A stretch of 40,218 nt of DNA from Bacteroidales bacterium (GCA_025454775.1 JALONU010000001.1:1-40218), one strand, 5' to 3'; shown: positions 5,801-27,131, numbered from the stretch's first letter. The notes: generated by a model from the sequence alone, not told the origin. A program made the numbers and translations.

Positions 5801-6041
5801 TTATATGAAGATCAGCAACGTGACCCTGGGTTACGATCTGAAGGCTTTACTGAAGACAATTCCTCTTGCTTCTGCCCGGTTCTTCGTGACAGTTCAGAAC
5901 CTGTATACATTCACTGGCTATTCGGGGATGGACCCTGAGATCGGAGCAGGTTCAGGGACCGACAGCTGGGCAAAAGGGATAGATATCGGATTTTATCCTT
6001 CTCCCCGGACAGTTATGCTGGGTGCAAGCTTGAAATTTTAA
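2895..6041 (+). CDS. susC: SusC/RagA-family TonB-dependent outer-membrane transporter
   Basis: 1048 aa. Signal peptide, then a carboxypeptidase-regulatory-like domain (ISGVVRDQSGQPMSGVTVVVQGTSVGTLTGVDGRYSL), a TonB-box-like DEVVVVGYG, a plug (IDVLKDAASSAIYGSRGANGVILVTTKKG) and a C-terminal barrel ending in F. A susD gene follows 3 nt downstream. Confidence 0.95.
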   Translation: MLKRSVLIFLLLLANLSLIAQQTISGVVRDQSGQPMSGVTVVVQGTSVGTLTGVDGRYSLQAPAGAATLQFSFIGYTTLNEPIGGRTAVDVALKEMVTGLDEVVVVGYGTLRKKLVTGATVQVKGEDIQKLSTVSPMTALQGQTPGLSIIKNTGQPGDGFKVNIRGMGTIGNSQPLYVIDGVPGGNIDNLAPADIETIDVLKDAASSAIYGSRGANGVILVTTKKGVKPASGYKANISYDGSFGWQNLYKKLPLMNGLEYANIVNEARVNSGMPLFTYSDVPDWDRIVSGAWEGTDWIDELTNENAPVMNNALNITGGSEAGTYSLGLSHSKQEGIFGTPVESVYERFSVRLNTDFILLRDKTNTFTIIRAGETLRYVNSNSHGVGTSNQYWNDVFSCIIASPFLPLLAADETDKAYPYHYAIPFNSQASNPIAQMVYSRGLNNSQNHNLNGSVYIEIQPIRNLVFRSSFGYGMSAGSWRSYTPVYDLSSTSFNGEDDVSHSMWEGYNWTWENTLSYNFMLGTDHNFTALLGTSAERSGLGENLSGSNSNSLFSDFEHAYLDNTPVIDVNLTNIGSSPWGIGGIISYFGRVSYNFREKYMATAVLRADASSNFMLGNRWGYFPSFSAGWVVSEENFFANVKDKVNFLKIRGGWGQNGNQSIPRFQYLATISFANVNYFFGPDKAEVSTGGYPNILPNPDVTWETSDQVNIGFDARFLKNKLTAEFDWYRRTTYDWLVNPSMLASYGTNAPYINGGDVLNTGVELALGYSDNAGDLRYTVGINGSYNKNEVKRIANNEGIFHGPGNVLGQGTEELYRAQVGYPIGYFWGYKTLGVFQTETEVSEYRNSEGKVIQPTAVAGDLIFDDTDDNGVIDYNDKVMIGDPNPDFIVGFSLSLAYKGFDFSMLSNGAFGQQIARSWRRWADSPLNNYTTDVFDRWHGVGSSDKYPRLTYGAHPNWQYNSDIFIEDADYMKISNVTLGYDLKALLKTIPLASARFFVTVQNLYTFTGYSGMDPEIGAGSGTDSWAKGIDIGFYPSPRTVMLGASLKF

Positions 6042-6044
6042 AAG

Positions 6045-7838
6045 ATGAAGAATATGAAAAAGATATTTCTGTTACTATTTTCAGTTGTAGTGCTGGCGGG
6101 CTGCACCGAGGATTTTCTTGATACTGTTCCGCTGACATCGAAAACGAACAACGACTTTTACCAGACAGTGTCCGATATGGAGCAAGGTCTTACAGCTGCC
6201 TACCAGACACTTGTCGATGTACCGGGCGGAGGCTGGGTTATTGCCTGTTATCCATTCGCTATGTCCGAGATAATGTCGGATGAGCGGTTTGGCGGAGGCG
6301 GAGACAATGACCGCGGGGTAAGGGCGATATGCGACTTCAAGATCGAAGGCTCTGATATGTTTATTTTTCCCTGGAAGAGAGCCTATACCGGGATCTACAG
6401 GTGCAACATGATCCTCGAAAACATCGACAAACCGAAATGGGAGAGTGAGGCACAGAAGGGTAAGGTGGAAGGACAGGCACGTTTCCTGAGGGCAATGATG
6501 TACTTCGATCTATCAAGAATGTTCGGGGAAGTGCCCCTGATTATTGAAACCAAACCTCAGAATCTGCCTAAAGCACCAGCAGCTGATACTTATGCACAGA
6601 TAGCTGCCGACCTGAAAGCTGCCATAGAAGCCTTCCCAAGTGTTCCTTACGGAGTGGCAACCTATTCTGATCTGGGCCGTGCGAACAGGTGGAATGCTGA
6701 AGCCATGATGGCAAGGGTATTCCTGTTCTATACAGGTTATTACGGCGAAGACGCACTTCCTCTTCCCGACGGAGGAACGGTTACAAAAGCAGAAGTCGTT
6801 ACATGGCTCGAGGACTGCATCGACAACAGCGGTTACCAGCTCATGCCCGAATTCAGGAACCTCTGGCCCTATGCCTTGGCTAATGCAACAAATTCGGAAA
6901 AACCCTACAAGTATGCTGTCGACAACAATCTTTCCTGGTACGGGGAAGAAGGTACGAATGCTGAAACGATGTTCGCCCTGAAATTCTCGACATTTGCCGA
7001 CTGGGGTACAAGCATTTATTACAGCAACCAGATGAACCTCTTTTTCGGATGGCGTCAGTATTCATATAAAGGTGCTATGGGAGAAGGCTGGGGAATGGGT
7101 ACTGTAAATAAAAAGCTCTGGGATGCATGGCCTGATGAAGATATGCGCAAGAGAGGGTCCATCTGCAAGGTCGATGATGATGCCGTTGAGGGTATTGATG
7201 CAAGCTACGGTCTTGGCGTTGATACTCACGACAAGCAGATGGATGAAACCGGCTACTGGCAGAAAAAGTACAGGCCGATCAACCTCTACAATGACGGTGA
7301 ATGGCATAATTACAGCGTTGAGTTTTATAATGCTACCAGGAATTTCCAGCTCGATAACATGCAGGATATAGTTCTGATAAGATTTGCAGACGTTCTTCTG
7401 ATGCATTCAGAACTTACCGAGACAGTTGACGGCATAAATCAGGTGAGGGCACGGTCGAGTGTTCCTATTGCTGACCCTCCCCCTGCAACTACAACTCACC
7501 CTTCGTTACCTCCGCTTGCTACTTATACGCTGGAAGCACTTAAGAATGAACGCCGGTTTGAACTTGCATTCGAAGGCGTCCGTTACTATGACCTTATGCG
7601 CTGGTATGGCAAGAATAACCTCACCGGCCTGGAGCAGCACCTTGAATCGGCACAGAACGGAGTACCCACTTTCAACAATGGTGTATGGGGTGTAAAGAAA
7701 GGAGTTGACTTCAGACCGATCACAGGAGGGTTTATCCAGATACCCAACCAGGAGGTTCAGCTTTCGGAAGGAGTGCTGATCCAAAATCCGGGATGGGAAC
7801 CGGGCGTTGCCCCTGTTTACTCATTCAGTGCACGTTAG
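6045..7838 (+). CDS. susD: SusD/RagB-family glycan-binding outer-membrane lipoprotein
   Basis: 597 aa. Lipoprotein signal (VVLAGC), TPR-like helical core, and typical SusD motifs (RAYTGIYRCN, GQARFLRAMMYFDLSRMFG, ERRFELAFEGVRYYDLMRW). Sits immediately after susC. Confidence 0.95.
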   Translation: MKNMKKIFLLLFSVVVLAGCTEDFLDTVPLTSKTNNDFYQTVSDMEQGLTAAYQTLVDVPGGGWVIACYPFAMSEIMSDERFGGGGDNDRGVRAICDFKIEGSDMFIFPWKRAYTGIYRCNMILENIDKPKWESEAQKGKVEGQARFLRAMMYFDLSRMFGEVPLIIETKPQNLPKAPAADTYAQIAADLKAAIEAFPSVPYGVATYSDLGRANRWNAEAMMARVFLFYTGYYGEDALPLPDGGTVTKAEVVTWLEDCIDNSGYQLMPEFRNLWPYALANATNSEKPYKYAVDNNLSWYGEEGTNAETMFALKFSTFADWGTSIYYSNQMNLFFGWRQYSYKGAMGEGWGMGTVNKKLWDAWPDEDMRKRGSICKVDDDAVEGIDASYGLGVDTHDKQMDETGYWQKKYRPINLYNDGEWHNYSVEFYNATRNFQLDNMQDIVLIRFADVLLMHSELTETVDGINQVRARSSVPIADPPPATTTHPSLPPLATYTLEALKNERRFELAFEGVRYYDLMRWYGKNNLTGLEQHLESAQNGVPTFNNGVWGVKKGVDFRPITGGFIQIPNQEVQLSEGVLIQNPGWEPGVAPVYSFSAR

Positions 7839-7859: not shown

Positions 7860-8690
7860 ATGAAAAGAAAGATATTTTACCTGGTGGCAGGAACAGCGTT
7901 GTTGATAGCTTCCTGCGAACCTATAGAGAAACGGCAGGACGCAGGGCCCATAGTTCCGGCTGAGGACTTTGTCTTCACCATAACGAATGATGCAGCCAAC
8001 GATTACATCCTGTACCTCGACAACAAAACACCCGAGGTAATGTTCTCATGGGATTATGCCTGGGGAGTAACCAGGAAACAACAGGACACTGTACGTATGC
8101 TGGTTCCCGGCAATTATACAATAAAAATAACAGCTCTTACCGCCGGGGGCATAGTAACCACAACGAAGAATGTAACTGTAACCAAATCGGATCCGAACGC
8201 CTTCCAGGAACCTGAATGGGCATATCTGACCAATTTTACGGCAGGAAAAACCTGGGTGTGGAACGACAACCTGTCCGGTGTCTGGGGGAACGGAGGATAC
8301 AAGGGATGCAATGCTCCCTGCTGGTGGGTTGTTAATAAAGCCGGTGTGGACGGACAGGGCGCAGGCAGTGATGAAATGATATTCGACCTGAACGGAGGGA
8401 TGAACCTCACCCTTAAAGCTGCGTCAAGACCAGCGGCATACAAGGGTACGACAAAAGGCACATTTACCCTCAGTTTCACTCCTACCTTTGCCGGCTGGGA
8501 TGTCGGGACTCTTAAATGTACGAATGTCACTATCCCGCTTGGTGTGCAGGTTAATTTCTCAGATCAGATCCAGTATGAATACTATGTGCTCAAGCTGGAT
8601 GAAGATGAACTGAACCTGGCAGCCCCTGAACCCGGAGTAACATGGGACTGGGGGACTGCGTGGTTCTGGATGTTCAAACCGAAAAATTAA
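7860..8690 (+). CDS. PUL-encoded surface lipoprotein, candidate surface glycan-binding protein (function unknown)
   Basis: 276 aa with lipobox LLIASC. N-terminal Ig/PKD-like segment (GNYTIKITALTAGGIVTTTKNVTV) and a Trp-rich C-terminal half. Its position downstream of susD is typical of SGBPs. I recognised no catalytic motif. Confidence 0.6.
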   Translation: MKRKIFYLVAGTALLIASCEPIEKRQDAGPIVPAEDFVFTITNDAANDYILYLDNKTPEVMFSWDYAWGVTRKQQDTVRMLVPGNYTIKITALTAGGIVTTTKNVTVTKSDPNAFQEPEWAYLTNFTAGKTWVWNDNLSGVWGNGGYKGCNAPCWWVVNKAGVDGQGAGSDEMIFDLNGGMNLTLKAASRPAAYKGTTKGTFTLSFTPTFAGWDVGTLKCTNVTIPLGVQVNFSDQIQYEYYVLKLDEDELNLAAPEPGVTWDWGTAWFWMFKPKN

Positions 8691-8709: not shown

Positions 8710-8745
8710 GCAGAGACGCCCGGGAAGGGCGTCTCTGCTGTTTAT
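8710..8745 (+). terminator. Rho-independent-type terminator hairpin
   Basis: Perfect 12-bp stem GCAGAGACGCCC (8710..8721) / GGGCGTCTCTGC (8727..8738) with a 5-nt loop, followed by TGTTTAT. It lies 20 nt after the lipoprotein stop codon. Confidence 0.6.
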
Positions 8746-8813: not shown

Positions 8814-9491
8814 ATGAAGGTTATACCTGTCGTATGTCTGTCATTTCTTGCTGTCTCATGCATCAGTAAAGACACCCTGACAGTTAATGGAACTGTTGAT
8901 GATCCTGCCCTGAATAATACAAAAGTATATTTTGTCGCGTCCGACGGACCAGTCACCCATGATGTGGATTCAGCTATAATAATTGACGGAAGATTCAGGT
9001 TTGTTAAAAAAGCTGATTCCATGCGTGTGAGGATCGTAAGGGTCCCGGTCAGATTCCCGGGAGCATTGGAGGATCTTGTTACAGTCCTTGAGAAGGGAAC
9101 TATTGATGTTGACCTGTCAGCAAACAGCAGGGGGGGTGGAACAAGACTTAATAACAGGCTTCAGGAATGGAAGGATTATAAACATTCACATGACTCTCTT
9201 CAGTCGGATCTTTACGCATTAAAAAGACAGGAAGGTACAACAAAAGAATATACCGACAGCCTGTTGATGAAGTCAGCCCTCTTAAACCAGGAATACAGAA
9301 GCTACGTTTTTAACCTGATGAATGAAAACCTTCATAATGGCATCGGCCTGCTTCTTTTCAAGGTGTATTACCATGAGATTGCGGTTGAGGAAAAGAAGAG
9401 GATTCTGGACCTTACAGGGAATATTTATCTTGAAAAAGACGCACAGCTCAGGAACATGGTAATGAACGACAAATCCCTTAACCCGGAATGA
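8814..9491 (+). CDS. Small lipoprotein with a DUF4369-like N-terminal beta domain and a helical C-terminal half (function unknown)
   Basis: I prefer the start at 8814 (MKVIPVVCLSFLAVSC lipobox) over the ORF-track start at 8769. The N-terminus (LTVNGTVDDPALNNTKVYFVASDG...IIDGRFRF) resembles the DUF4369 domain usually fused to TlpA-like thioredoxins in Bacteroidota, but no CxxC or thioredoxin domain is present here. The stop overlaps the next ATG (ATGA at 9488..9491). Confidence 0.55.
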   Translation: MKVIPVVCLSFLAVSCISKDTLTVNGTVDDPALNNTKVYFVASDGPVTHDVDSAIIIDGRFRFVKKADSMRVRIVRVPVRFPGALEDLVTVLEKGTIDVDLSANSRGGGTRLNNRLQEWKDYKHSHDSLQSDLYALKRQEGTTKEYTDSLLMKSALLNQEYRSYVFNLMNENLHNGIGLLLFKVYYHEIAVEEKKRILDLTGNIYLEKDAQLRNMVMNDKSLNPE

Positions 9492-11275
9492 GATCAATTG
9501 CTGTATCCGGTGGCTGGAAGATCTTTTATGCTGCTTTCTCTGCAGCAACTTTTATTTTCTTCGGGGTCTCCTATGAAAACCACCTGATTCGGATGGAACA
9601 GCTCCAGTTGTTCCAGACAACGGCAATTTATTTGGCAGACAAACTGTCTGTTCAGGGTGGATTTGCAGACTATACAGGTGAATTTTTAGTGCAGTTCTTT
9701 GGTCTGCCCTTTGCGGGAGCAGTAGTTACCGGCATCATGCTCAGCCTCGTAATAATTCTGACAGGGCAGATAATAAGACTGGTAACAGCCAGGGAACCTT
9801 TAATGTTGTTTTCTTTTCTCCCCGCCGCAGGCTGGTTCTTGCTGCTGCAAAACGAATTTTATTCATTTTCGGGTGTGCCGGGTTTTCTCATTTCCCTGTT
9901 CGCTTCACGGTTCTACCTGACCCTGAAGCAACCATCAAAAAGAATTTTCGCAGGGATCTTGCTGATACCTATTGTGTACTGGCTCACAGGAGCTGCATAC
10001 ATGACATTTGTACTTGTTATTGTAATTTCAGAAATCATTTTCAGGACAAAGGCAAGAGAACTTAAACCGGTTCCCCTGGCTGTGCTTCCCGCGTACCTTG
10101 TAATCGGGATCATGGTGCCCCTTGCTGCCAGGTTCCTGATAATTGAGGACACCCTTCTGCAGGCATACATTTCAGGATCATACTTCAGGCTAAGCATTTT
10201 CTTCCCGTTTCCACTGGTGTTGATAGTGATCTCAGTTCCTTGTTTTATTCTTTTACAGGAATTTCTGCCCTTTGCACCCTTTGCGCAATCGTCTTTGCGT
10301 CCTTTGCGGTTAAATATCATATCATCCTGTGCCATAATGCTCTTTCTGATCGTCGGTATTTTGGCCTGGGGCGATTTCAGGGCTGAAGATCAGATGGAAT
10401 ACGACAACCTCGTGTACAGGGAGAAATGGAACAGGATCATTGAGAAGGCTGAGAGGGAACAACCAACTGACCGTTTGTCGATGGTCGCGGTGAACCTCGC
10501 GCTTGCAAAAACAGGGCAGCTTTCTGCCAGGATGTTCAGCCTCGGGCAGTCAGAAGACTTCCTGTTTTCTGAATATGAGCGAAGGGGGATGACTCCTTTC
10601 CTGGCAGGAGAACCTTTCTATCACCTTGGATTCATAAATTTCGCACAGATGGTTGCCTTTGAGACACTCGAGTCAACACCCGATGCGAAATTTCCTTCAC
10701 GGTCACTGATAAGGATCGCTTCAACTTACCTTATCAACGGGCAATATGATATTGCAAGGAAATACCTGGAACCTCTGAGCCATACGGTTTTCTACAGGAA
10801 ATGGGCCAGGGAATGCATCAGACTTTCATACAGGGAGGATGAAATCAGAACCCATCCTGTCTGGGCCTATATGAGAAGCCTCAGTGCTAAACATGATTTC
10901 TTTTATAATGCAGGGCAGATGGATGTGGCGCTCAGGTATTTGCTTCTTTCCAATCCGCGCAATAAAATGGCCTATGAATACCTCATGGCTTTTTACCTGC
11001 TCGACAGGGATCTGGACAGCTTCCTGAAGTACCTCCCGCTTACCAGGCAGCTGAATTATGACGGAATGCCAAAATCGTGGCAGGAGGCGGCTGCGTATAT
11101 AGCGACACGTCTGCCTGATGATCTGCCCCAGCTAGAGGGATTCAGACCAGACCAGGAAACAATAAACAGGATCAAAGCTTATGCTGATCTGTTTTCCGGG
11201 GAACCCAGGGATACTACAAGAATAAGACAGGAATACGGAGATACATACTGGTATTATCTTCATTTTGTGAAATGA
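9488..11275 (+). CDS. Module 1 membrane protein (MP1): about 9 TM helices plus a C-terminal helical-repeat (TPR-like) domain of about 290 aa; uncharacterised family
   Basis: 595 aa. Hydrophobic segments run through about residue 300, then a soluble region (NLALAKTGQL, LINGQYDIARKYLEPLSHTVFYRKWA, AYEYLMAFYLLDRDL, C-terminal TYWYYLHF). Clear paralogue of 12747..14552 and 16258..18123. From memory this resembles Bacteroidota proteins labelled DUF6057; I have not verified that. Confidence 0.8.
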   Translation: MRSIAVSGGWKIFYAAFSAATFIFFGVSYENHLIRMEQLQLFQTTAIYLADKLSVQGGFADYTGEFLVQFFGLPFAGAVVTGIMLSLVIILTGQIIRLVTAREPLMLFSFLPAAGWFLLLQNEFYSFSGVPGFLISLFASRFYLTLKQPSKRIFAGILLIPIVYWLTGAAYMTFVLVIVISEIIFRTKARELKPVPLAVLPAYLVIGIMVPLAARFLIIEDTLLQAYISGSYFRLSIFFPFPLVLIVISVPCFILLQEFLPFAPFAQSSLRPLRLNIISSCAIMLFLIVGILAWGDFRAEDQMEYDNLVYREKWNRIIEKAEREQPTDRLSMVAVNLALAKTGQLSARMFSLGQSEDFLFSEYERRGMTPFLAGEPFYHLGFINFAQMVAFETLESTPDAKFPSRSLIRIASTYLINGQYDIARKYLEPLSHTVFYRKWARECIRLSYREDEIRTHPVWAYMRSLSAKHDFFYNAGQMDVALRYLLLSNPRNKMAYEYLMAFYLLDRDLDSFLKYLPLTRQLNYDGMPKSWQEAAAYIATRLPDDLPQLEGFRPDQETINRIKAYADLFSGEPRDTTRIRQEYGDTYWYYLHFVK

Positions 11276-12744
11276 AAACTTTTAACCGCTGTTTGTTTTT
11301 TTTCTTTCTGCTTCCTTTTTCGGCTTGTAATGAGGAATACCGGTCAGTAATCACAATTAACAATTATCCTTCTATATTCCCCGATTATAAAGAGGTAACA
11401 ATACCTTATAATATAGCGCCGCTCAACTTCAGGGTTAAGGAGGAAGCAGAAAGGCTGATCGTTAAAATAAAAGGTAAAGGCCCGGAGCACGAATTCCGCT
11501 TCAGGGGGAACAAAGCCAGGTTCCATCAAAAGGATTGGGAAGGGATAATGAAAACTTCCGCAGGCAATGATCTTGAAATAACTGTAAGTGTTGGTCACCA
11601 AGATTCCCTCAAAGTCTATAAGTCATTTACAATTCATGTATCAGAGGACAAGATCGATGATTACATGGTCTACAGGCTGATTATGCCCGGATTCCAGAAC
11701 TGGAACCAGATGGGCATTTACCTGCGTGAACTGTCATCATTCAGTGAAGAGACGGTAATAAACAGCCGTCTTCTTCCGGGAACCTGCATGAACTGCCATA
11801 CCTTCCTGCATAATGATCCGCAAAATATGGTTCTTCACCTCCGGGAATCTTACGGGGGTACGATCCTGTATCACAATAATGTCCTTGAGAAGCTTAATAC
11901 AAAAGCCGGAAAGATGTTTGCAAACGCAGCATTTCCTGCATGGCATCCTTCGGCAAAGTACATAGCCTTTTCCGTGAACAGGGTCAACCAGGTATTTCAT
12001 GCCAGCGGCTCTTTCAGGGCTGCGGCCATAGACATGAAATCTGATATTTTCATATATGATATTGAAAGGAATGAGATGCTGACTTCCCCTGCGCTTTCGG
12101 CCGGAGATAACTTCGAAACATTCCCCTGCTTCTCTGCCGATGGCACGAAGTTGTTTTATTGCAGCGCCGATTCCGTTCAGATGCCACAGAAATTCCAGCA
12201 GGCAAGGTACAGCCTGTGTTCGGTATCATTTGATCCGGAAACTGGAACCATTGGAAGCAGCCCGGATACAGTGCTATCTGCGGCAGTTACCGGCAAAAGT
12301 ATGTCACTGCCGCGGGTCTCACCCAACGGCAGGTTCCTGATGTTCGTCATGGCTGACCACGGCTGCTTCCCGAGCTATAATCCTGAAGCTGATCTGTGGA
12401 TGCTCGACCTTGAGAACGGTAATTATGAGCCGTTGACCATACTGAACAGCGATAATGTGGAAAGCTGGCATTCATGGTCTTCAGACGGCCATTGGGTGGT
12501 TTTCAGCAGCCGCAGGGAAAACGGCCTTCATTCAAATCCATTCATCGCTTATATTGACAGTAATGGAAAACCTCACAAGCCATTCCTGCTCCCCCAGGAA
12601 GATCCCTCATTCTACGACAGCTTTTTGTTCTCATATAATATCCCTGAGCTGATCAAAGCTCCGGTGAAGGTCCGGCCTTACACTATCGTAAAGACTGCAA
12701 GATCGTCGCCAGCTGTACAGGTCAGCTCAGGGTCAGGACACTGA
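11272..12744 (+). CDS. Module 1 lipoprotein (LP1): N-terminal beta domain, CxxCH motif, TolB/PD40-like beta-propeller
   Basis: 490 aa. Lipobox LLPFSAC; YPSIFPDYKEVTIPYNIAPLNFR; CMNCH at 11785..11799; PD40-like blades (WHPSAKYIAFS, FSADGTKLFYCSA, VSPNGRFLMF, WSSDGHWVVFSSRR). The start overlaps the MP1 stop (ATGA). Confidence 0.8.
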   Translation: MKTFNRCLFFFFLLPFSACNEEYRSVITINNYPSIFPDYKEVTIPYNIAPLNFRVKEEAERLIVKIKGKGPEHEFRFRGNKARFHQKDWEGIMKTSAGNDLEITVSVGHQDSLKVYKSFTIHVSEDKIDDYMVYRLIMPGFQNWNQMGIYLRELSSFSEETVINSRLLPGTCMNCHTFLHNDPQNMVLHLRESYGGTILYHNNVLEKLNTKAGKMFANAAFPAWHPSAKYIAFSVNRVNQVFHASGSFRAAAIDMKSDIFIYDIERNEMLTSPALSAGDNFETFPCFSADGTKLFYCSADSVQMPQKFQQARYSLCSVSFDPETGTIGSSPDTVLSAAVTGKSMSLPRVSPNGRFLMFVMADHGCFPSYNPEADLWMLDLENGNYEPLTILNSDNVESWHSWSSDGHWVVFSSRRENGLHSNPFIAYIDSNGKPHKPFLLPQEDPSFYDSFLFSYNIPELIKAPVKVRPYTIVKTARSSPAVQVSSGSGH

Positions 12745-12746
12745 TA

Positions 12747-14552
12747 ATGAAAGAAAGGAACATGCCGGGGAAAGGAAAATATCTGACTCATAAATACATC
12801 ATTCCTGTAATATTTGTTGCAGGTTCTTTCCTCTGTTTCGGGCTGTTCCTTAGATATAATCTGTGGTTCCGGGAGCAGCTGCAGGTCTTTCTGCTAACCT
12901 TTGATCACCTGCAGGGGTACTTTACCAAACCAGCTTTCCTGGCTTCATGGATCGGGGATTTCCTGACTCAGTTCTTTCATCCCTCGTGGGGAGCTGCCAC
13001 TGTTATTTCTATAACACTGCTGATCCTCTGGCTGCTCCTTCATGTTCTTGTCAAGAAAACCGGGGGCACAAAAGTGCCATTCCTGGTCCCGCTTCTTCCG
13101 GTGATTCTCTGCTGGGCAGCCCTCACCAGTCTTGAATACCCGGTGTCAAATGTTATATCACTCTGCATAGCAATATCTTTCGTGCTTGTATATGTTTCGA
13201 TCAGGCCTGCAACCGGAAGACAGTTATTTGGCATTGTTTCCATTCCGCATGTCTACCTGACAGCCGGCAGCAGTATGTGGATATTTGCAGCGGCATTTCT
13301 TATATATGAACTCAGAGAGAAAAGGATCAAGGGATTCAAATCGCTGTTGCTGCCCCTGGTAATAGTTGCTATTGCGGTCGGTATTCCTTTGATACTCAGG
13401 TTAAAATACTTGCTTACCCCATTTCAGGCTCTGACCTGGCTTTCGGAAATGAAGAGAAACCCGGGAATCTGGGATTTCCTTCCACTTGCCGGGGTCATTA
13501 TCTCTGCATCGGTATCGATGATGGTTATATGGGATAAGGTCGCTTTTAAAAGCAATTCTCTTGTTTCGGGCTTCCTCCAGGCCCTGGTGATCGGGGCTGT
13601 TCTGGCAGGAGGGATCCTGAAAGTCTATGACAGGGATCTGGAAAAGATTCTCAGGCTCGATCGCGAAGCGGCAAACGGGAACTGGAAGAAAGTATATGAG
13701 CTCTCGGAGGAATATGAACTCCGCAATAACATCGCATCATATTTCACAAACATGGCGATGGCAAAGCTCGGCATAATGCCAGACAGTCTTATGATGCACT
13801 ACCAGCCTGCAGCCACCGGCCTTTTCATACCCGTAAATGCCAATGAGAATTATCTGACGATCACATTGAGCAACGAAGTATACTGGCATCTCGGCGATGT
13901 GAATGCCGCCCAGCATTCAGCGTACCTGGGTACAATCTTTTCTCCCAGGGCAGAGAACAGCAGGCTAATGAAAAGGCTTATTGAAATAAACATAGTTAAC
14001 GGCCAGTATGCAGTCGCGGAGAAGTATGTAAGGATACTGGAGAAGACCATGTTCCACGGGAACTGGGCTGAGGATATGCGGAAATATCTTTACAATGAGG
14101 AAGAGTGTGGCAGGTCGGAGTGGATCAGGGCAAAGAGAGCTGTCATTCCTTCCACAGACCTCCTGAAATCCGGGAATGAATATGTAAAAACACTGCGGAT
14201 GCTCGTTCAGAACAATCCGGCTAACAGGATGGCGCTTGATTACCTTCTTTGCTTTCATCTCCTCAGCAGGGATATCCCATCCTTTGAATCAGACTTTGAG
14301 AAATATTATCTTCCAGGCATGGATGCGGTTCTCCCGCGGGTATACCAGGAAGGTCTCCTTATAAACATCGCTTCCAGAAGGAAGACGCCGGCAGATTATT
14401 CCCGGTTCAGCTTCTCGCCGGAAACCGTAAGGCAGATGGCTGAATACACAAGGTTATTTGAAGAAAGCAACGGGAAAGGTTCTGTGTTAATTGAAAAGTT
14501 TGGTAAAACTTACTGGTTCTATTATCATTTTGCAAGGATGAAAGATGAATAA
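12747..14552 (+). CDS. Module 2 membrane protein (MP2), paralogue of MP1 and MP3
   Basis: 601 aa with the same architecture: GDFLTQFF near the N-terminus, IVNGQYAVAEKYVRILEKTMFHGNWA, ALDYLLCFHLLSRDI, C-terminal TYWFYYHF. Starts 2 nt after the LP1 stop. An alternative start is the MPGKGKY ATG at 12762 (compare MP3, MPGKNVK). Confidence 0.8.
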   Translation: MKERNMPGKGKYLTHKYIIPVIFVAGSFLCFGLFLRYNLWFREQLQVFLLTFDHLQGYFTKPAFLASWIGDFLTQFFHPSWGAATVISITLLILWLLLHVLVKKTGGTKVPFLVPLLPVILCWAALTSLEYPVSNVISLCIAISFVLVYVSIRPATGRQLFGIVSIPHVYLTAGSSMWIFAAAFLIYELREKRIKGFKSLLLPLVIVAIAVGIPLILRLKYLLTPFQALTWLSEMKRNPGIWDFLPLAGVIISASVSMMVIWDKVAFKSNSLVSGFLQALVIGAVLAGGILKVYDRDLEKILRLDREAANGNWKKVYELSEEYELRNNIASYFTNMAMAKLGIMPDSLMMHYQPAATGLFIPVNANENYLTITLSNEVYWHLGDVNAAQHSAYLGTIFSPRAENSRLMKRLIEINIVNGQYAVAEKYVRILEKTMFHGNWAEDMRKYLYNEEECGRSEWIRAKRAVIPSTDLLKSGNEYVKTLRMLVQNNPANRMALDYLLCFHLLSRDIPSFESDFEKYYLPGMDAVLPRVYQEGLLINIASRRKTPADYSRFSFSPETVRQMAEYTRLFEESNGKGSVLIEKFGKTYWFYYHFARMKDE

Positions 14553-14576
14553 GATTTTTAGATTGAAGTTAATCAG

Positions 14577-14732
14577 GGTGATCCTTCGCTTCGCTCAGGA
14601 TGACAATTTCTTTGTCCGGATATGGGGAGCAGGGATGCGCAAAGCTCCCAGCTTTGCGCATCCCTGCTCCCCCGTGTGTCTCCCTGGACATTCTGTCATT
14701 TCGAATGGAGCGAAGCGAAATGAGAAATCTCC
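14577..14732. repeat. Nested palindromic intergenic element A (MITE/REP-like)
   Basis: Imperfect outer inverted repeat: GGTGATCCTTCGCTTCGCTCAGGATGACA (14577..14605) versus TGTCATTTCGAATGGAGCGAAGCGAAATGAGAAATCTCC (14694..14732). It encloses a perfect 23-bp hairpin, GGGGAGCAGGGATGCGCAAAGCT (14624..14646) / AGCTTTGCGCATCCCTGCTCCCC (14650..14672), with a 3-nt loop. Same architecture as the element at 23669..23827. Confidence 0.8.
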
Positions 14733-14751
14733 TTGCTCTATTCCCAATTTC

Positions 14752-16248
14752 ATGTTAAAACGCTTTTACGCTCTTTGCGGATTTTTCTTATTCATGGGAT
14801 CTTTGATCCTGTTTTTTTCCTGCAACGGGGATCACCAGCAAATTATCCGGAATGACATTTACCCGTCTATATATCCTGATTACGCTAATGTGACAATACC
14901 TTATAATATAGCTCCGCTGAATTTTAGGCTTGAGGCTGATTGTCAGAAGGTTGAGGCTGTTTTTTCGGGCAGGAAAAGCTCCTTCACCGTCAGCGGAAAA
15001 AGAAAAATCATTATTCCCGTAACGAAATGGAAGAAAATGCTGGAGGAACACGAGGACGATTCCCTCTTAGTTTCAGTTTCTGTGTTGAATGACGGCAAAT
15101 GGAACAGGTACAGGCCATTCTGCCTGTATGTCTCTGCAGACAGGATTGATCCTTTTCTTTCGTACCGTCTTATAGAACCGGGCTATGAAGTTTATTACAA
15201 GCTGCAGATATGCCAGAGAAACCTTGAGAACTTCGACGAGAAGGTGCTCGCTGACAATAACCTGCTCGACATAGGATGCATCAACTGCCATACATATTCG
15301 TTCGCTGATCCTGAAAGATCCTTTTTCCACCTTCGGCATAAGAAGGGTGGAACAATGGTGCAGGTGAATGGAAAATTCAGGAAGATCAATACTGCTACCG
15401 ACAGCACCATTTCATCCGGAGTTTATGGCAACTGGCATCCGGGAGGAAGATATATTGCATTCTCGACCAATGTGATAATCCCGGAGTTCCATTCAATAAA
15501 CAACCTGCGCCTTGAAGTCTACGACACAGTTTCGGACGTGGTTGCCCTCGACCTCGAAAATAATGAGATCATCAGGAGCAGGCTGCTTGACGATCCTCTG
15601 AGGTTTGAGACTTTTCCGGCCTTTTCAGCTGACGGGAAGAGACTTTTCTTCTGTTCTGCCGAAGCTGTAAGCATGCCTGGGAACTACAGGCAGGCAAAAT
15701 ACAGCCTCTGCGCAATAGATTTCGATCCTTCGGCAGGAGCCTTTGGAATAAGGATAGATACTCTGGTCTCAGCGAGAGCAACGGGAAAGACGATCAGCGA
15801 ACCCAAACCTTCTCCTGACGGGAAATACATTCTCTACACATCTTTCGGTTATGGGAATTTCCCTGTCTGGCATAAAGAGGCAAACCTGCATCTACTGAGG
15901 CTTTCTGACCTGAGAGTGGATACATTGCCCCTGGTGAATTCCGATAATGCCGATTCCTATCACAGCTGGTCGTCGGACAGCCGGTGGTTCGTTTTTGCCA
16001 GCAAGCGGGGCGACGGGGTATATGGGAAACCATGGTTTTCCCATATTGACGCGAACGGCAGAACAACAAAGCCTTTCCTAATGCCCCAGAGAGATCCGGA
16101 GTTCTATGATTTCTTCATGAAATCATATAATATCCCGGAATTATCTTCCGGTCCGGCTCCGTTCACTCCGGAAGATGTCCGCAGGGCTTTTATCCAACTT
16201 GAGGCAGAACCTGTTGATGTCAATGATTATAAGACGGAAAAACCGTAG
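14752..16248 (+). CDS. Module 2 lipoprotein (LP2): CxxCH plus TolB/PD40-like propeller
   Basis: I prefer the start at 14752 (MLKRFYALCGFFLFMGSLILFFSC lipobox). The 14545 start would translate the repeat element (ILRFAQDDN...). Motifs: IYPSIYPDYANVTIPYNIAPLNFR; CINCH at 15277..15291; WHPGGRYIAFS; FSADGKRLFFCSA; PSPDGKYILY; WSSDSRWFVFASKR. Confidence 0.8.
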   Translation: MLKRFYALCGFFLFMGSLILFFSCNGDHQQIIRNDIYPSIYPDYANVTIPYNIAPLNFRLEADCQKVEAVFSGRKSSFTVSGKRKIIIPVTKWKKMLEEHEDDSLLVSVSVLNDGKWNRYRPFCLYVSADRIDPFLSYRLIEPGYEVYYKLQICQRNLENFDEKVLADNNLLDIGCINCHTYSFADPERSFFHLRHKKGGTMVQVNGKFRKINTATDSTISSGVYGNWHPGGRYIAFSTNVIIPEFHSINNLRLEVYDTVSDVVALDLENNEIIRSRLLDDPLRFETFPAFSADGKRLFFCSAEAVSMPGNYRQAKYSLCAIDFDPSAGAFGIRIDTLVSARATGKTISEPKPSPDGKYILYTSFGYGNFPVWHKEANLHLLRLSDLRVDTLPLVNSDNADSYHSWSSDSRWFVFASKRGDGVYGKPWFSHIDANGRTTKPFLMPQRDPEFYDFFMKSYNIPELSSGPAPFTPEDVRRAFIQLEAEPVDVNDYKTEKP

Positions 16249-16257
16249 ATTTGTAAT

Positions 16258-18123
16258 ATGCCCGGCAAAAATGTGAAAACGGTTGATGGCAGGCTGGCAA
16301 GAAATTCTGCTTTACTATCTGCCCTGATCTTCTTTGCAGCTGTTTTCAGCTTCTTTGCTTTTTTTTACAACAAGCACCTGCATTTCGAGGAGGAGACGCA
16401 GCTTTTCCTTACGACAGGGGATTTTTTTACGGCAAAAATGAAGCTTCCGGGGGGATTGTCGGGATACCTTGGAGGATTCCTTACCCAGTTCTATCACCTT
16501 GACCTTGCCGGCCCTTTTATTATAGCGGTACTTCTGCTCGGCATACAACAGCTTACATTGAGAATTCTGAACAGGGTGAATGTGAATCCTGCCTGGTTCC
16601 TTCTGAGCTTTCTGCCAGCTGTGAACGGGATGCTGATCCTCTGCGATGAGTTCTATCCCCTTTCCGGCATTGTCGGGATACTGGCAGCCCTTTTTGCCGG
16701 GTGGATCTACACCGGCACAGACAACCGGACAAAAAGATTTATTTCCGGTCTGCTTCTGATAGCTGTGACATATTGGATAGCAGGCGGATCCTTCCTTATG
16801 CTCGTGGGAATAATACTGGCCTGCGAGGCACTAATATTTTTTAAGGCACGAAGAAGGCTTAAGACCCGGAAAGATAATCAATCCAGCACTCTGAAGGGCT
16901 GGCAGCTCACAGTCCTTGTTGTGGTTGCGGCTGCAATACCCCTGCTGGTCAGGCAGTTCCTTGTTCTTCAGCCGCTGGGGCTGGCTTACATAACCGAATT
17001 CTACTATGATATGCGGACGGTGATCCCGACCGCCATCCCCGTGATACTTGCACTACCCGCCATCCTGATGGCACTGGTATATTTTCTTCCTGAAAATAAA
17101 GTAATGCATGGTTCGGTCATTTTTGCACAGGCAGGCATCCTGGTAATCCTATGGTATTTCGGGTTGAAGCTATGGGCGAATTTCAGCGCCGAGCAGATCA
17201 TGACTTACGATCAACTCGTCAGGAACGAGAAATGGAAAGAGGTCCTGGATTATGCAGAGAAGGAGCCTCCGAGAAATAACCTTTCACTGGCGATGCTTAA
17301 CCTTGCCCTGGCAAAGACTAACAGGATGGGAGACCAGCTTTTCAGATACGAGCAGAACGGGTTCAACGGTCTTTTCCTGCCTTTCGCAAAGGAATATGTA
17401 GCCCCGATGATGGGCAGTGAGATATTGTTCCAGCTTGGACTCATCAATGCTTCGCAGGAATACTCTTTCGAAAGCACGGAAACCACACCCAACCTCGACA
17501 AGTCGGTGAGAGCCATAAAGCGACTCGCGGAGACAAACCTCATAAACGGTCAGTACGAAGTTGCCGGAAAGTACCTGAAGATCCTGCAGAAAACGGTTTT
17601 CTACCGTAAGTGGGCAGGGGAGACGATGAAACTCCTGTATAATGAGGATCTCATAAACAGCCATCCGGTCTATGGTGCGAAAAGAAAGCTTGCCCCGAAA
17701 CGGGATTTCTTCTTCAAGATACAGAACATGGAGGAGATACTGAAACTGATGATCCGTGAGAATCCTTCCAATAACATGGCTTTCCAGTACCTGATGTCAT
17801 TCTACCTGCTGAACAAGGATCTCAGGAACTTCATGAACAGTCTCCCCATGATGAACACAATGAAATATATCAGGATACCGGTGGCATACGAAGAAGCTAT
17901 CATGTATGTAATAGGGCTCGCGACTACAAACCCGATGGCAAACACTGATTTCAGGATCAGTAATGAGACCAAGGCAAGGATGCAGGCTTATGCAGATATT
18001 TACACCACCCGAAGAGATGCGCAACAGATACTCGGTACAAGATTCGGGAATACTTTCTGGTATTACCTTCATTACAAGCAGATTGAAATAACCCCCGCCG
18101 AGGTGCAAAGAGAATACCATTGA
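16258..18123 (+). CDS. Module 3 membrane protein (MP3), paralogue of MP1 and MP2
   Basis: 621 aa. Positively charged N-terminus, about 9 TM helices, then NLALAKTNRM, LINGQYEVAGKYLKILQKTVFYRKWA, AFQYLMSFYLLNKDL and a C-terminal TFWYYLHY. Starts 9 nt after the LP2 stop. Confidence 0.8.
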   Translation: MPGKNVKTVDGRLARNSALLSALIFFAAVFSFFAFFYNKHLHFEEETQLFLTTGDFFTAKMKLPGGLSGYLGGFLTQFYHLDLAGPFIIAVLLLGIQQLTLRILNRVNVNPAWFLLSFLPAVNGMLILCDEFYPLSGIVGILAALFAGWIYTGTDNRTKRFISGLLLIAVTYWIAGGSFLMLVGIILACEALIFFKARRRLKTRKDNQSSTLKGWQLTVLVVVAAAIPLLVRQFLVLQPLGLAYITEFYYDMRTVIPTAIPVILALPAILMALVYFLPENKVMHGSVIFAQAGILVILWYFGLKLWANFSAEQIMTYDQLVRNEKWKEVLDYAEKEPPRNNLSLAMLNLALAKTNRMGDQLFRYEQNGFNGLFLPFAKEYVAPMMGSEILFQLGLINASQEYSFESTETTPNLDKSVRAIKRLAETNLINGQYEVAGKYLKILQKTVFYRKWAGETMKLLYNEDLINSHPVYGAKRKLAPKRDFFFKIQNMEEILKLMIRENPSNNMAFQYLMSFYLLNKDLRNFMNSLPMMNTMKYIRIPVAYEEAIMYVIGLATTNPMANTDFRISNETKARMQAYADIYTTRRDAQQILGTRFGNTFWYYLHYKQIEITPAEVQREYH

Positions 18124-18128
18124 CAGGA

Positions 18129-19595
18129 ATGAAAATCAATTTAGCAATACTATCAGCAGCGTTGCTGCTTCTCATAGCTTCCTGTTCGGGAATTCCCGGT
18201 AATCCGGAAGAAGGAAATTCACTGCCAGTGCTTTACCCTGATATCACGGAGGTGACCACTCCTGTCAACATCGCCCCGATGAATTTCAGGATAGAGGCAC
18301 AATCTGAAAAGCTGGTAGTGAGGTTTGAAGGCGGTTCCGTGGGATTTGTGCTGAAGGGAAAGGACAGGATAACGATCCCGTCGGGGAAGTGGCACAGGCT
18401 TCTCAGGGAATCGGCAGGAAGTTCCGTGAATGTAAGCATCTGGTCGAAGGAGCAAGGTTCATGGATAAAGTATTCTCCCTTCAGGATTTATGTCAGGAAG
18501 GAACCCATAGACCAGTACCTGGCTTACCGGCGTATAGCCCCCGGCTATGAGTCATGGAGCAGCATGGGGCTTTACCAGAGGGACCTTACATCGTTCAGGG
18601 AATCTGTGATTATTGATAACCGGCTCCTGCCGGGAAACTGCATGAACTGCCACTCCTTCAACAGGAACGATCCGGGGCAGATGTTGTTCCATCTGCGGGG
18701 GAACATAGGTGCAACGATGTTGGTTCAGGGGGAAGATGTGACCAAGCTGAATACGCGCACGAAAGAAACCGGGCTGAACTGCGTTTACCCGAACTGGCAT
18801 CCTTCCGGATCATATATTGCTTTCTCAGTCAATAAGATAGCCCAGGTGTTCCATACTGTGAGGGATAAGAGGATAGAAGTTTTTGACACAAAATCCGACC
18901 TGGTTGTGCTGGATACACGGAACCGCCGGCTGATCACTTCCCCGCTGGTCTATACAACCGGGAGCTATGAGACCTTCCCGGTATTTTCAGCTGACGGGGG
19001 AATCCTGTATTTCTGCTCAGCCGATACGGCAAGGATGCCCGACGAGTATGACAGGGTTAAATACAGCCTTTGCAGCATTACCTTCGATGCAGCCTCAGGA
19101 ACTTTCGGGAACAGGGTCGACACTGTTATAAGCCGGACACAGACCGGAAAGAGTATCTCTTTCCCACGAACCTCTCCTGACGGTAAATTCCTGATGTTCA
19201 CGCTGTCCGATTACGGGAATTTCAGCCTTTGGCACAGGGAAGCGGACCTCTGGCTTCTGAACCTGGCTGACAAATCTGTAAAACCGATAAACCAGGTGAA
19301 TTCAGGTGAAGCTGACAGCTTTCATTCATGGTCATCAGGCTCCCGGTGGTTTGTTTTTGCCAGCAGGCGTACAGATGGTCTTTACACCCGTCCTTATTTT
19401 GCCTGGCTTGATGAAAACGGGGAAGCTACAAAGCCTTTTATACTTCCACAGAAGAACCCCGACTTCTACGATTATTGCCTGAATTCTTTCAATGTGCCTG
19501 AACTGGTGGCCGGAAAGATAAGGACCGACGGCAGGAAAATGCTGAAGACAATCGGCTCGGAGGCAAAAAGTGTTACTTTTGAGATAAAAGAATAA
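18129..19595 (+). CDS. Module 3 lipoprotein (LP3): CxxCH plus TolB/PD40-like propeller
   Basis: I prefer the ATG at 18129 (MKINLAILSAALLLLIASC lipobox). The ORF-track TTG at 18120 overlaps the MP3 stop. Motifs: LYPDITEVTTPVNIAPMNFR; CMNCH at 18639..18653; WHPSGSYIAFS; FSADGGILYFCSA; TSPDGKFLMF; WSSGSRWFVFASRR. Confidence 0.8.
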   Translation: MKINLAILSAALLLLIASCSGIPGNPEEGNSLPVLYPDITEVTTPVNIAPMNFRIEAQSEKLVVRFEGGSVGFVLKGKDRITIPSGKWHRLLRESAGSSVNVSIWSKEQGSWIKYSPFRIYVRKEPIDQYLAYRRIAPGYESWSSMGLYQRDLTSFRESVIIDNRLLPGNCMNCHSFNRNDPGQMLFHLRGNIGATMLVQGEDVTKLNTRTKETGLNCVYPNWHPSGSYIAFSVNKIAQVFHTVRDKRIEVFDTKSDLVVLDTRNRRLITSPLVYTTGSYETFPVFSADGGILYFCSADTARMPDEYDRVKYSLCSITFDAASGTFGNRVDTVISRTQTGKSISFPRTSPDGKFLMFTLSDYGNFSLWHREADLWLLNLADKSVKPINQVNSGEADSFHSWSSGSRWFVFASRRTDGLYTRPYFAWLDENGEATKPFILPQKNPDFYDYCLNSFNVPELVAGKIRTDGRKMLKTIGSEAKSVTFEIKE

Positions 19596-19601: not shown

Positions 19602-20756
19602 ATGCCAAAGGCCTATTTTACTTATCTTCCGGAGGTTGCGGGGACTGTTGCGGAAGAAATCGAACAGTGTGTCGGGAAGATCGGGGGGATTATTTCAGAT
19701 GGCTATCTGCCTGTTAAGCTTAACTTCTTTGCCGGCTCTGCTGATCTGTCAGCCTTTCTTAAAACAAGGGAGTATATCCGGAATCGTCTTATGGAAGCTT
19801 TCAGGGACAGTTGTCCGGCGTTCTGTGTTACGGCACAAGCTCCTGAAAAACCGGCAGTCCTGGCCATGGAAGTAACATGTGTGACGAAAAACAATAATGT
19901 TGGTTACAGGAAACATCTTGATATCCCGTATACGGTCGTTAATTCGGACGAGGGGACTGAGCTCTGGGCTGCAGGAGTAAGCAGCTATCAATATCACGAC
20001 GACACCCGTAATGCCGCAACGCAGGCCTTCGAACAGGTAAATAGTATTCTGGCCGCTGAAAGTATGTCGATGAATAACATTGTCAGGCAGTGGAATTATA
20101 TAGGCAATATATTGAAGATCAGTGAGGGGCGGCAGAATTACCAGGTGTTCAACGAAGTCCGGAATGAATATTACACAAGATACCGCTCCGTAAAGGGCTA
20201 TCCGGCTGCAACGGGTGTGGGAATGATGCACGGTGGTGTCATCCTTGATTTCTGCGCCCTCAGGCCCTCTGATGAAACCACGATATTCCCGGTTGAGAAT
20301 CCGCATCAGCTAAATGCATATAACTATGGCCAGCAGGTGCTGAAAGGCGCATCACCGGATGGCCAAATACTCAGGCATCCACCGCAGTTCGAACGGGCCC
20401 TTCTGATTTCAAACCGTTCGGAGGCCATACTCCATATTTCGGGTACTGCATCGATCATAGGGCAGGAGACGGTTGGAACGGGCGATATAGAAAAGCAGTC
20501 GCTGGTCACAATCGGGAACATGAACCTTTTGTCCGATGCTGAAAGGCTGCAAAAGCTTAATGCAAGGATTCATCCTGCTGAAAGCCGGTATTCACTGATA
20601 AGGGTTTATATAAGGAACAGGGAAGATTTTAATATAGTCCGGCTTATATGCGATGAACGCTTTCCGGGTGTTCCTGCCCTTTTTGTGAATGCCGATATCT
20701 GCCGCGATGATCTGCTGATGGAAGTCGAGGCTGAGGCGGATGTCAGTATAATTTGA
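19602..20756 (+). CDS. Chorismatase-like protein (FkbO/Hyg5/XanB2-type, RidA/YjgF fold); tentative
   Basis: 384 aa, no signal peptide. The C-terminal segment HISGTASIIGQETVGTGDIEKQSLVTIGNMNLL matches my recollection of the conserved ISGTASI.G.E(T/S)...GD...Q motif of chorismate-transforming FkbO/Hyg5 enzymes. Starts 6 nt after the LP3 stop. Confidence 0.45.
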   Translation: MPKAYFTYLPEVAGTVAEEIEQCVGKIGGIISDGYLPVKLNFFAGSADLSAFLKTREYIRNRLMEAFRDSCPAFCVTAQAPEKPAVLAMEVTCVTKNNNVGYRKHLDIPYTVVNSDEGTELWAAGVSSYQYHDDTRNAATQAFEQVNSILAAESMSMNNIVRQWNYIGNILKISEGRQNYQVFNEVRNEYYTRYRSVKGYPAATGVGMMHGGVILDFCALRPSDETTIFPVENPHQLNAYNYGQQVLKGASPDGQILRHPPQFERALLISNRSEAILHISGTASIIGQETVGTGDIEKQSLVTIGNMNLLSDAERLQKLNARIHPAESRYSLIRVYIRNREDFNIVRLICDERFPGVPALFVNADICRDDLLMEVEAEADVSII

Positions 20757-27130: not shown

Positions 27131-27131
27131 C

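Follow-up and report, generated by a model that had tools for sequence, protein, structure and literature searches.

A multiplied DUF6057 membrane protein–propeller lipoprotein module with a putative haem c site in a Bacteroidales polysaccharide utilization locus

INTRODUCTION

In current models of polysaccharide utilization loci (PULs), import through SusCD is followed by the action of periplasmic glycosidases and, finally, by an inner-membrane sugar transporter. Here we describe a two-gene module encoding a polytopic membrane protein (hereafter MP) and a CxxCH-bearing beta-propeller lipoprotein (hereafter LP), which is repeated three times head to tail in a stretch of 40,218 nucleotides (nt) from a Bacteroidales bacterium (GCA_025454775.1, JALONU010000001.1:1-40218; hereafter the window).

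Several described systems share parts of this organization. The XusABC loci of Bacteroides combine a TonB-dependent transporter with a beta-propeller lipoprotein, the surface-exposed and siderophore-binding XusB, and an inner-membrane protein of the PepSY type, XusC. In the MP-LP loci, too, genes for an importer of the outer membrane and for a propeller lipoprotein accompany that for a polytopic protein of the inner membrane; however, these loci show no homology to XusABC, LP lacks an export signal and the pair is multiplied. Cytochrome cd1 nitrite reductase, subunits of hydrazine synthase and quinohaemoprotein dehydrogenases would be similar to LP, if its haem is real, in joining a c-type haem site to a propeller in an exported protein, whereas LP differs from these oxidoreductases by the absence of detectable homology, of a separate cytochrome c domain and of an evident second cofactor, and by its context, namely a PUL in fermentative anaerobes. 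TMTC1-4, TMEM260, PMT and the O-antigen-ligase proteins carrying tetratricopeptide repeats (TPRs) are akin to MP in their polytopic core, non-cytoplasmic helical repeats and acidic first-loop residue, but MP matches these TPR-bearing transferases of the glycosyltransferase C (GT-C) type neither in sequence nor in fold, and its membrane core is smaller. Finally, TolB resembles LP in its PD40 repeats, in the arrangement of a propeller behind an N-terminal domain and in a probable periplasmic location, whereas LP is a lipoprotein with a CxNCH motif, a DUF6057 partner and no tol-pal context.

The gene families concerned are thus catalogued (DUF6057 and the 'TolB family'), whereas no known system corresponds to the MP-LP module when it is viewed as a functional unit. 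An earlier note on this DNA, made from the sequence alone, had known of no characterized PUL component of such organization, in agreement with our searches of Pfam, NCBIfam, PDB sequences and folds and the literature, which yielded no characterized relative; nor did we find an experimental study of the MP-LP unit in the searchable literature, including the chorismatase, CXXCH and TolB angles.

RESULTS AND DISCUSSION

Three old duplicates of a strictly paired module

The six open reading frames (ORFs) of the three head-to-tail pairs are located exactly where the earlier note had placed them (Table 1), and their junctions, which it had described as ATGA overlaps or gaps of 2-9 nt save at a repeat insert, were measured as such: the overlaps occur at two junctions (DUF4369/MP1 and MP1/LP1), and the other gaps amount to 2 nt (LP1/MP2), 9 nt (LP2/MP3), 5 nt (MP3/LP3), 6 nt (LP3/FkbO) and 199 nt (MP2/LP2). 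All three MPs are full-length members of DUF6057 (PF19529) and score above its gathering score of 29.8 bits. This catalogued identity had been missed in the earlier note, whose description of MP as a polytopic protein with a helical domain stands. The Pfam entry gives no function and no structure and does not record the LP partner, and the searchable literature contains no paper on DUF6057.

Global identities between the paralogues are 28, 37 and 30% for MP and 39, 42 and 46% for LP, BLASTP among them returns E-values from 1e-47 to 1e-156, and at the DNA level only traces of similarity are found. Since protein identities are low and DNA similarity is almost gone, the sequences indicate that the three pairs are true but old duplicates, as the note had proposed, and the motif blocks that it had listed for MPs and LPs are present and conserved. 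Its suggestion that pair 2 is the outlier for both components holds for MP2, which is the most divergent MP (28-30% identity to MP1 and MP3), but not for the lipoproteins: among the three LPs of the window the greatest divergence is seen in LP1 instead of LP2, and family-wide the pair-2 type is only marginally set apart (its means are 0.38 and 0.41 to the two remaining types, compared with 0.43 between these).

For comparison, we assembled 156 loci, comprising 76 genome loci found from MP (L001-L076) and 80 metagenome loci found from LP. In the genome loci, which belong to Bacteroidales in the GTDB sense and include Rikenellaceae, Muribaculaceae, Tannerellaceae, Bacteroides, Parabacteroides and Prolixibacteraceae, LP follows MP nearly without exception, and in the metagenome loci 83 of the 86 LPs have an MP directly upstream. 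When the distance matrix of MP was compared with that of LP over 104 adjacent pairs, the two were correlated with a Mantel r of 0.93, a value that none of 999 permutations reached, and independent clustering of the 104 MPs and of the 104 LPs resulted in identical partitions (adjusted Rand index 1.0 for k = 3-6). These results bear out the earlier proposal that the pair duplicated as a unit with co-evolving partners, and the MP-LP pair is an ancient, strictly paired and co-diversifying unit. Three main pair types (W1, W2 and W3) can be distinguished, of which the window holds one each in that order; W3 is the most frequent (60 of the 104 pairs), the scan patterns being biased towards this type. 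Individual loci hold one to four pairs, and their gene order differs between lineages.

Natural fusions suggest that the two proteins form a complex

In at least four representatives, which are at most 50% identical to each other (P0245, P0260, P0312 and P0262), MP and LP are fused into one polypeptide, in which the DUF6057 part precedes the LP part with no signal peptide or hydrophobic segment between them. One of these fusions (P0245) was confirmed on its contig, where it lies directly after a SusD gene. A word-filtered search for further fused homologues with P0245 retrieved this protein itself and a single DUF6057 protein. Such fusions argue for a physical association of MP and LP. Moreover, three of them lack the last 100-160 residues of MP, including the terminal motif T(Y/F)W(Y/F)YxH(F/Y), which is nearly invariant among MPs, and this loss suggests that the C-terminal region of MP may dock LP when the two proteins are separate. 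Two further candidates, an LP-FkbO and an LP-GH9 'fusion' in loci L007 and L019 (GH, glycoside hydrolase), were rejected as artefacts of masked N runs.

A nearly invariant CxNCH motif in LP

A profile search of 1.84 billion representatives returned 767 LP clusters (50% identity) at E <= 1e-30, whose representatives are mutually at most 50% identical; the best 150 of the 767 were checked and 142 of these were aligned. Of the 150, 146 contain a single CxxCH, which in nearly every case reads CxNCH, and in the alignment C171 (139/142), N173 (136/142), C174 (140/142), H175 (139/142) and R190 (139/142) are almost always retained, while the three representatives devoid of CxxCH are also devoid of R190 and H188. 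Among the ORFs of the loci, CxxCH is found in 220 of 230 LPs and in none of 233 MPs, compared to a background of 0.017 per 1000 amino acids (aa) in other ORFs.

Cytochrome c maturation systems recognize CxxCH in proteins exported through Sec, and gut Bacteroidales probably carry one such system, CcsBA, alongside NrfAH. All three LPs of the window are exported proteins with a CxxCH motif. Because CxNCH is nearly invariant and is lost together with R190, the linker that joins the beta-sandwich of LP to its propeller probably carries a single, covalently attached haem c. The conserved motif itself had been recognized in the earlier note, whereas its reading as a haem c attachment site had been missed. 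In addition, H175 is kept more strictly than H188 (98% versus 89% of LP representatives). This difference is more in keeping with H175 as the proximal ligand of a haem, whose distal ligand varies or is missing, than with a Cys2His2 zinc site.

LP is predicted to be a periplasmic lipoprotein distinct from TolB

The AlphaFold2 model of LP3 (predicted local distance difference test score, pLDDT, 89.2) consists of a signal helix, an Ig-like beta-sandwich (~26-136), a linker of roughly 60 residues that contains CxNCH, and a PD40 propeller reaching to the C-terminus. The signal peptides of all three LPs terminate in lipobox cysteines. Throughout the family, positions +2 to +7 after the lipid-modified cysteine are D/E in only 3-22%, in contrast to the homologues of the surface glycan-binding protein (SGBP) encoded nearby, in which the motif C-(D/E)-P-I-E-D-R (74-87% D/E) fits the Bacteroidota surface-export signal. 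This difference supports a location of LP at the periplasmic side.

Foldseek searches with LP retrieved generic propellers only, including ROS1/Sevenless, prolyl oligopeptidase, DPP4, sialidase and GH74, and by sequence TolB was the only match among solved structures (E about 0.06). The labels of LP in NCBI and UniProt ('TolB family protein', 'PD40 domain-containing protein', 'Translocation protein TolB') derive from the repeat alone. An assignment of LP to TolB of the Tol-Pal system was rejected, as LP reaches 16-35 bits against cut-offs of 343-405 (TIGR02800/NF002183) and has SusCD, DUF6057 and FkbO genes as neighbours.

These similarities nevertheless lead to an alternative in which the TPR-like domain of MP and LP would form a Tol/Bam-style bridge between the membranes and organize SusCD machines. 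BamB/BamD and TolB/CpoB are precedents for the combination of TPRs with a beta-propeller lipoprotein, TolB is the protein to which LP is weakly similar in sequence, Bacteroidota lipoproteins reside in the outer membrane by default, so that an LP-MP contact could span the periplasm, and the stand-alone pair of Parabacteroides distasonis described below would suit a general envelope role. We regard such a scaffold as distinctly improbable, however, since it leaves the invariant CxNCH/R190 and the dense polar conservation in both partners unexplained, the TolB equivalog scores are far from the cut-off, tolQRA/pal genes are not found nearby, and in the fused proteins LP is tethered to the inner membrane.

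Topology of MP and its comparison with known membrane proteins

MP3 was modelled by AlphaFold2 (pLDDT 83.7, predicted template modelling score 0.82) as an all-helical protein with a membrane region (residues 9-306) and a helical domain (residues 309-606). About nine membrane segments are accommodated within the 306 residues, and the domain of ~300 residues is partly TPR-like and contains many conserved polar R/E/N/Q/Y/W residues. Across 42 MPs, the number of K+R per loop is 2.9 at the N-terminus, 1.45 in the net acidic segment 38-65, 0.6 in segment 105-110, 0 in 129-134, 3.2 in 153-160, 5.9 in 196-213, 0.9 in 235-258 and 2.0 in 276-284. This charge bias, together with the lack of a surface-export signal in LP and the fusions without a membrane segment between their halves, supports an N-in topology in which the C-terminal helical domain is periplasmic and able to meet LP, as the earlier note had reasoned.

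The same note had felt reminded of GT-C-type glycosyltransferases, and indeed a multi-membrane core followed by a periplasmic helical-repeat domain would suit a transferase or ligase for lipid-linked sugars, a protein or glycan acceptor being chosen by the TPR-like domain as in TMTC, TMEM260 and PMT, with LP as the acceptor or specificity subunit. The acidic residue E45, located in the first periplasmic loop just past the first membrane segment and followed by two short loop helices, is 97% conserved, although a single residue of this kind is not diagnostic. It is the only feature of MP that points towards GT-C. Foldseek searches of the PDB, which includes many GT-C, WaaL and SEDS structures, returned nothing below E 0.2, with the limits that a whole-protein query and the low 3Di information in helices set to their sensitivity; the best match was MprF (E 0.22), and the best GT-C fold was STT3B (E 1.0, template modelling score 0.20). 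Designed TPRs were matched locally over ~160 columns with a probability of 0.82-0.85, but at E > 2, and Pfam TPR_8 was matched weakly by 1 of the 42 aligned MP homologues (E 0.19). At E <= 5, none of these 42 members matches a GT-C family (PMT, PMT_2, STT3, DUF2723 and others), a single one matches Wzy_C (E 0.017), and no Pfam family other than DUF6057 is common to them; searches against PDB sequences with a single sequence or with the profile (profile E <= 10) were equally empty. Furthermore, GT-C enzymes have 11-14 membrane segments compared to the ~9 of MP. A D-T-L O-glycosylation sequon in LP was also considered and discarded, as it is invariant in close homologues but not conserved family-wide (D 62 and E 53 of 142). 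With no fold, Pfam or PDB profile match, membership in GT-C is unsupported; a relationship of MP to GT-C, WaaL or Wzy was rejected for want of sequence, profile or fold support, and a transferase of this kind is very unlikely.

The strict cognate pairing invites a further comparison, namely with CcmI and NrfG, membrane-anchored periplasmic TPR proteins that recognize specific apocytochromes. Accordingly, MP might be a TPR chaperone that matures or holds its cognate cytochrome LP; there is precedent for such specificity, it would explain the one-to-one co-evolution, and the aromatic C-terminal motif of MP is nearly invariant. On the other hand, MP lacks WWD-type haem-handling motifs, H605 is invariant in the 42-MP alignment only, across 104 MPs of the three types only H40 passes 93%, and both H40 and H42 are absent from MP2. 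As fused forms devoid of the C-terminal motif still keep CxNCH, and as the stoichiometric coupling of the genes and their fusion are more readily explained by a stable complex than by a chaperone, a dedicated maturation pair appears highly unlikely.

Genomic contexts of the module

In complete loci the module belongs to a recurrent cassette in the order SusC - SusD - SGBP-B-like - DUF4369 - (MP-LP)n - FkbO-like, in which DUF4369 usually precedes the first MP and is, in the window, translationally coupled to MP1, while the FkbO-like gene, where present, is usually found after a W3 pair and is a frequent downstream neighbour of this type in many genomes. The cassette is combined with different carbohydrate-active enzymes (CAZymes), namely GH31, esterase, epimerase, GH67 and GH3 in the window and in Rikenellaceae-like metagenome-assembled genomes, a GH27-like enzyme, AXE1, GH3, GH26 and GH130 in a mannan PUL of Bacteroides luti, and GH26, GH130, a 2-epimerase and corrinoid methyltransferase genes in a mannan PUL of Bacteroides hominis. 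Such loci stem from gut, rumen, termite, digester and wetland Bacteroidales; the module itself is common in human-gut metagenomes.

Other copies are found without CAZymes or outside PULs. Two loci from other genomes, L051 and L062, the latter of Parabacteroides sp. PF5-9, contain CAZyme-free SusCD-SGBP-DUF4369-(MP-LP)x2 blocks. In P. distasonis, one pair (L117, 3168-6434) lies between cmk-ispH/lytB-pfk and meaB, with DUF1573 and alpha-2-macroglobulin genes also downstream and far from any SusCD, and its LP belongs to a 90%-identity cluster of 6,087 sequences, the largest cluster size reached; a second locus of this species has the order SusC-SusD-MP-LP-MP-LP (ABR45279.1, A6LHW5_PARD8). From this stand-alone pair and the CAZyme-free loci, the module is seen to be autonomous, the PUL copies having apparently been recruited and amplified. 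Its earlier description as a PUL component is thus correct for the window, where a hybrid two-component system regulator, SusC, SusD, GH31, GH67, GH3 and esterases are encoded together, but too narrow for the family.

The contexts also bear on the possibility that the module transports or hands off ligands, with MP as a permease or receptor, the MP domain and the LP propeller passing oligosaccharides inward, and CxNCH being structural (a disulfide or a metal site). Loci that hold just SusCD, SGBP, DUF4369 and MP-LP pairs, with no CAZyme and no other transporter, would be in line with such a role, as would the conserved R/E/N/Q/Y/W residues of the MP domain, which are typical of sugar binding, the cytoplasmic FkbO-like enzyme that is often encoded next, and the several pair types, which could match several ligands. 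Against this, cassette-bearing PULs also encode a standard sugar transporter of the major facilitator superfamily (MFS), no transporter fold was detected in MP, and hhalign detected no internal repeat, as a sign of a transporter, in either its membrane or its periplasmic half. A structural CxxCH in an exported protein would also risk haem attachment wherever cytochrome c maturation exists, and the pair in the housekeeping context is not linked to any importer. We therefore think transport unlikely.

Two side observations concern individual loci. In B. hominis (L061, 1169-4929), two URO-D-like methyltransferases, a B12-binding corrinoid protein and a Met_synt_B12 activation-domain protein are encoded just upstream of GH26-GH130-MFS-epimerase-MP-LP-FkbO, which looks like an anaerobic O-demethylase set in a mannan PUL. 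In L037 (10001-12601), and also in L021, L025 and L027, a DUF6057 gene is convergent to a gene for a 231-aa protein with CarboxypepD_reg and TonB Plug domains but no barrel, and the surrounding PULs contain GFO/IDH/MocA, DUF6807 and xylose-isomerase-like genes.

A model for the function of the MP-LP pair

We propose a model in which MP and LP of each pair are the two subunits of an obligate complex located on the periplasmic side of the inner membrane. Such pairs would have been recruited next to SusCD importers in several Bacteroidales lineages, where amplification gave rise to as many as four ancient types that are not interchangeable. The haem-propeller LP would carry out a non-hydrolytic, probably redox-dependent step on an oligosaccharide imported by SusCD or on a non-sugar decoration, whereas MP would position LP at the membrane and link it either with the quinone pool or with uptake; further downstream, a product might often be handled by the FkbO-like enzyme in the cytoplasm. 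In our judgement, there is about an even chance that this model is right, with MP and LP forming an obligate complex of inner membrane and periplasm whose haem-c propeller subunit performs a redox step on imported material, and the redox chemistry and the substrate of LP are speculative. The wider claim, that DUF6057 and LP constitute a new class of membrane-tethered, quinone-wired haem-c beta-propeller enzyme, with the pair types as substrate-specific isoforms in periplasmic redox chemistry on plant-cell-wall oligosaccharides or their decorations, is doubtful.

Several observations weigh against this model. A cytochrome c domain is not recognized in the LP linkers and is not among the top fold matches; two of ten linkers give sub-threshold, motif-driven matches (Paired_CXXCH_1, E 0.082; CCP_MauG, E 0.084). 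LP has no invariant distal ligand, and its AlphaFold2 model contains no haem. No cytochrome c maturation (ccs-like) gene was found in a search of the 156 loci. A periplasmic redox enzyme would also be an unusual component of a PUL in fermentative anaerobes such as these hosts. As for MP, AlphaFold2 draws residues 157-203 as one helix, while the topology derived from charges needs a hairpin or a re-entrant segment here, as with the N-terminus inside residues 161-195 must return to the cytoplasmic side. In addition, neither an invariant histidine in the membrane region nor a known quinone-site motif is present in MP, which makes its coupling of LP to the membrane purely conjectural. Lastly, DUF6057 genes occur as orphans without LP in L021, L025, L027 and L037.

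Other features of the window

The features of the window are compiled in Table 1. From 31 to 38535, all genes are on the + strand and form a Bacteroidota-type PUL, whose predicted enzymes are xylan/xyloglucan-like in type. The regulator has a short periplasmic part and is apparently N-terminally truncated by a stop just upstream or by the window edge. BfSGBP-B, of which the 276-aa lipoprotein is a homologue, is a surface glycan-binding protein composed of PKD and beta-barrel domains (PMC7974029); its ligands are beta-1,3-glucan and mixed-linkage glucan. Downstream of the FkbO-like gene follow genes for GH31 with PA14, an SASA-type esterase, an aldose epimerase, an ankyrin protein, an alginate-lyase-family protein, a BNR_4 protein, a protein without assignment, GH67, an MFS transporter and GH3 and, on the opposite strand, a gene for an AXE1 esterase. 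The ankyrin-repeat protein is an unusual constituent of a bacterial glycan locus. The GH3 gene is split into two ORFs in the same frame, by which the Pfam GH3 N-domain is broken at profile positions 240/247; the interruption is either a nonsense mutation or a sequencing error.

Table 1. Positions of annotated features in the window
Feature	Coordinates	Strand	Description
Hybrid two-component regulator	31-2709	+	892 aa; one Reg_prop and one Y_Y_Y match
SusC	2895-6041	+	Pfam
SusD	6045-7838	+	Pfam
BfSGBP-B-like lipoprotein	7860-8690	+	276 aa; no Pfam match; PDB 7KV5, E 4.9e-14
GC-rich hairpin	8710-8738	+	12 bp, 9 GC; 3' of the SGBP gene
TAnnTTTG, Bacteroides -7-like	8791	+	23 nt before the probable DUF4369 start; consensus match only
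DUF4369 lipoprotein	8814-9491	+	PF14289, E 2.2e-9; usual first gene of the cassette
MP1	9488-11275	+	595 aa; DUF6057 (PF19529), E 4.4e-141, 472 bits; pair type W1
LP1	11272-12744	+	490 aa; PD40, E 2.4e-12; lipobox FSAC; CMNCH at nt 11785-11799
MP2	12747-14552	+	601 aa; DUF6057, E 1.5e-151, 507 bits; pair type W2
Insert with nested inverted repeats	14553-14751	.	199 nt, between MP2 and LP2
LP2	14752-16248	+	498 aa; PD40, E 1.9e-16; lipobox FFSC; CINCH at nt 15277-15291
MP3	16258-18123	+	621 aa; DUF6057, E 4.4e-165, 551 bits; pair type W3
LP3	18129-19595	+	488 aa; PD40, E 3.9e-12; CMNCH at nt 18639-18653
FkbO/Hyg5-like chorismatase homologue	19602-20756	+	TIGR04444, E 2.8e-43, 148 bits, below the curated cut-off
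Ankyrin-repeat protein	27093-27737	+	214 aa; Ank_2, E 7e-33; between the aldose epimerase and alginate-lyase-family genes
GH3, split	36256-38535	+	In-frame TAA at 37093-37095

The FkbO-like protein matches PDB chorismatases (5ag3/4bps) with E-values of 1e-25 to 1e-20 and has no signal peptide; a chorismatase-fold enzyme is odd in a glycan locus and might hydrolyse another enol ether. For the DUF4369 lipoprotein, whose listed ORF begins at TTG 8769, ATG 8814 is the probable start, and an acidic export signal was looked for in this protein and not found. The motif TAnnTTTG occurs at nine sites on the + strand, three of them intergenic, before SusC (2796), DUF4369 (8791) and SASA (23641), and, together with the hairpin at 8710-8738, it may constitute a boundary or an attenuator ahead of the DUF4369-MP-LP block. 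From DUF4369 to GH31, all gaps are at most 15 nt, the repeat insert (199 nt) excepted. Because the hairpin and the -7-like motif precede DUF4369 and the gaps that follow are short, DUF4369-(MP-LP)x3-FkbO-GH31 may be a separate transcription unit, and the same strong hairpin and Bacteroides-type motif render doubtful the earlier view of one transcription unit with susCD.

The insert between MP2 and LP2 contains a perfect 23-nt palindrome at 14624-14672 with the arms GGGGAGCAGGGATGCGCAAAGCT and AGCTTTGCGCATCCCTGCTCCCC, and 12-nt outer arms, TTCGCTTCGCTC and GAGCGAAGCGAA, at 14585 and 14708. It creates a spurious N-terminal extension of 69 codons (ORF 14545-16248); this longer ORF is artefactual, the true start of LP2, with its lipobox, lying at 14752. 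The insert looks like an element of the miniature inverted-repeat transposable element or repetitive extragenic palindromic type, or a strong RNA hairpin. Further copies were found neither in the window nor in loci L001-L076, the search having covered these and not L077-L157, and an Rfam scan across the window gave no match; in other loci, the MP/LP junctions of cognate pairs are short.

IMPLICATIONS

The MP-LP module adds to the PUL model an inner-membrane/periplasm component that is repeatedly embedded, and multiplied, in hemicellulose PULs. Its hosts include culturable and genetically tractable strains of P. distasonis and B. fragilis, and the strict cognate pairing and natural fusions offer a clean system for the study of co-evolving membrane-periplasm protein pairs. 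The list of c-type cytochromes known in Bacteroidales is, to our knowledge, very short; if LP is a c-type cytochrome, this list would grow, and redox chemistry would be tied to glycan use in fermentative anaerobes. Should the enzyme reading of the pair be true, the module would represent a previously unseen enzyme layer in PULs.

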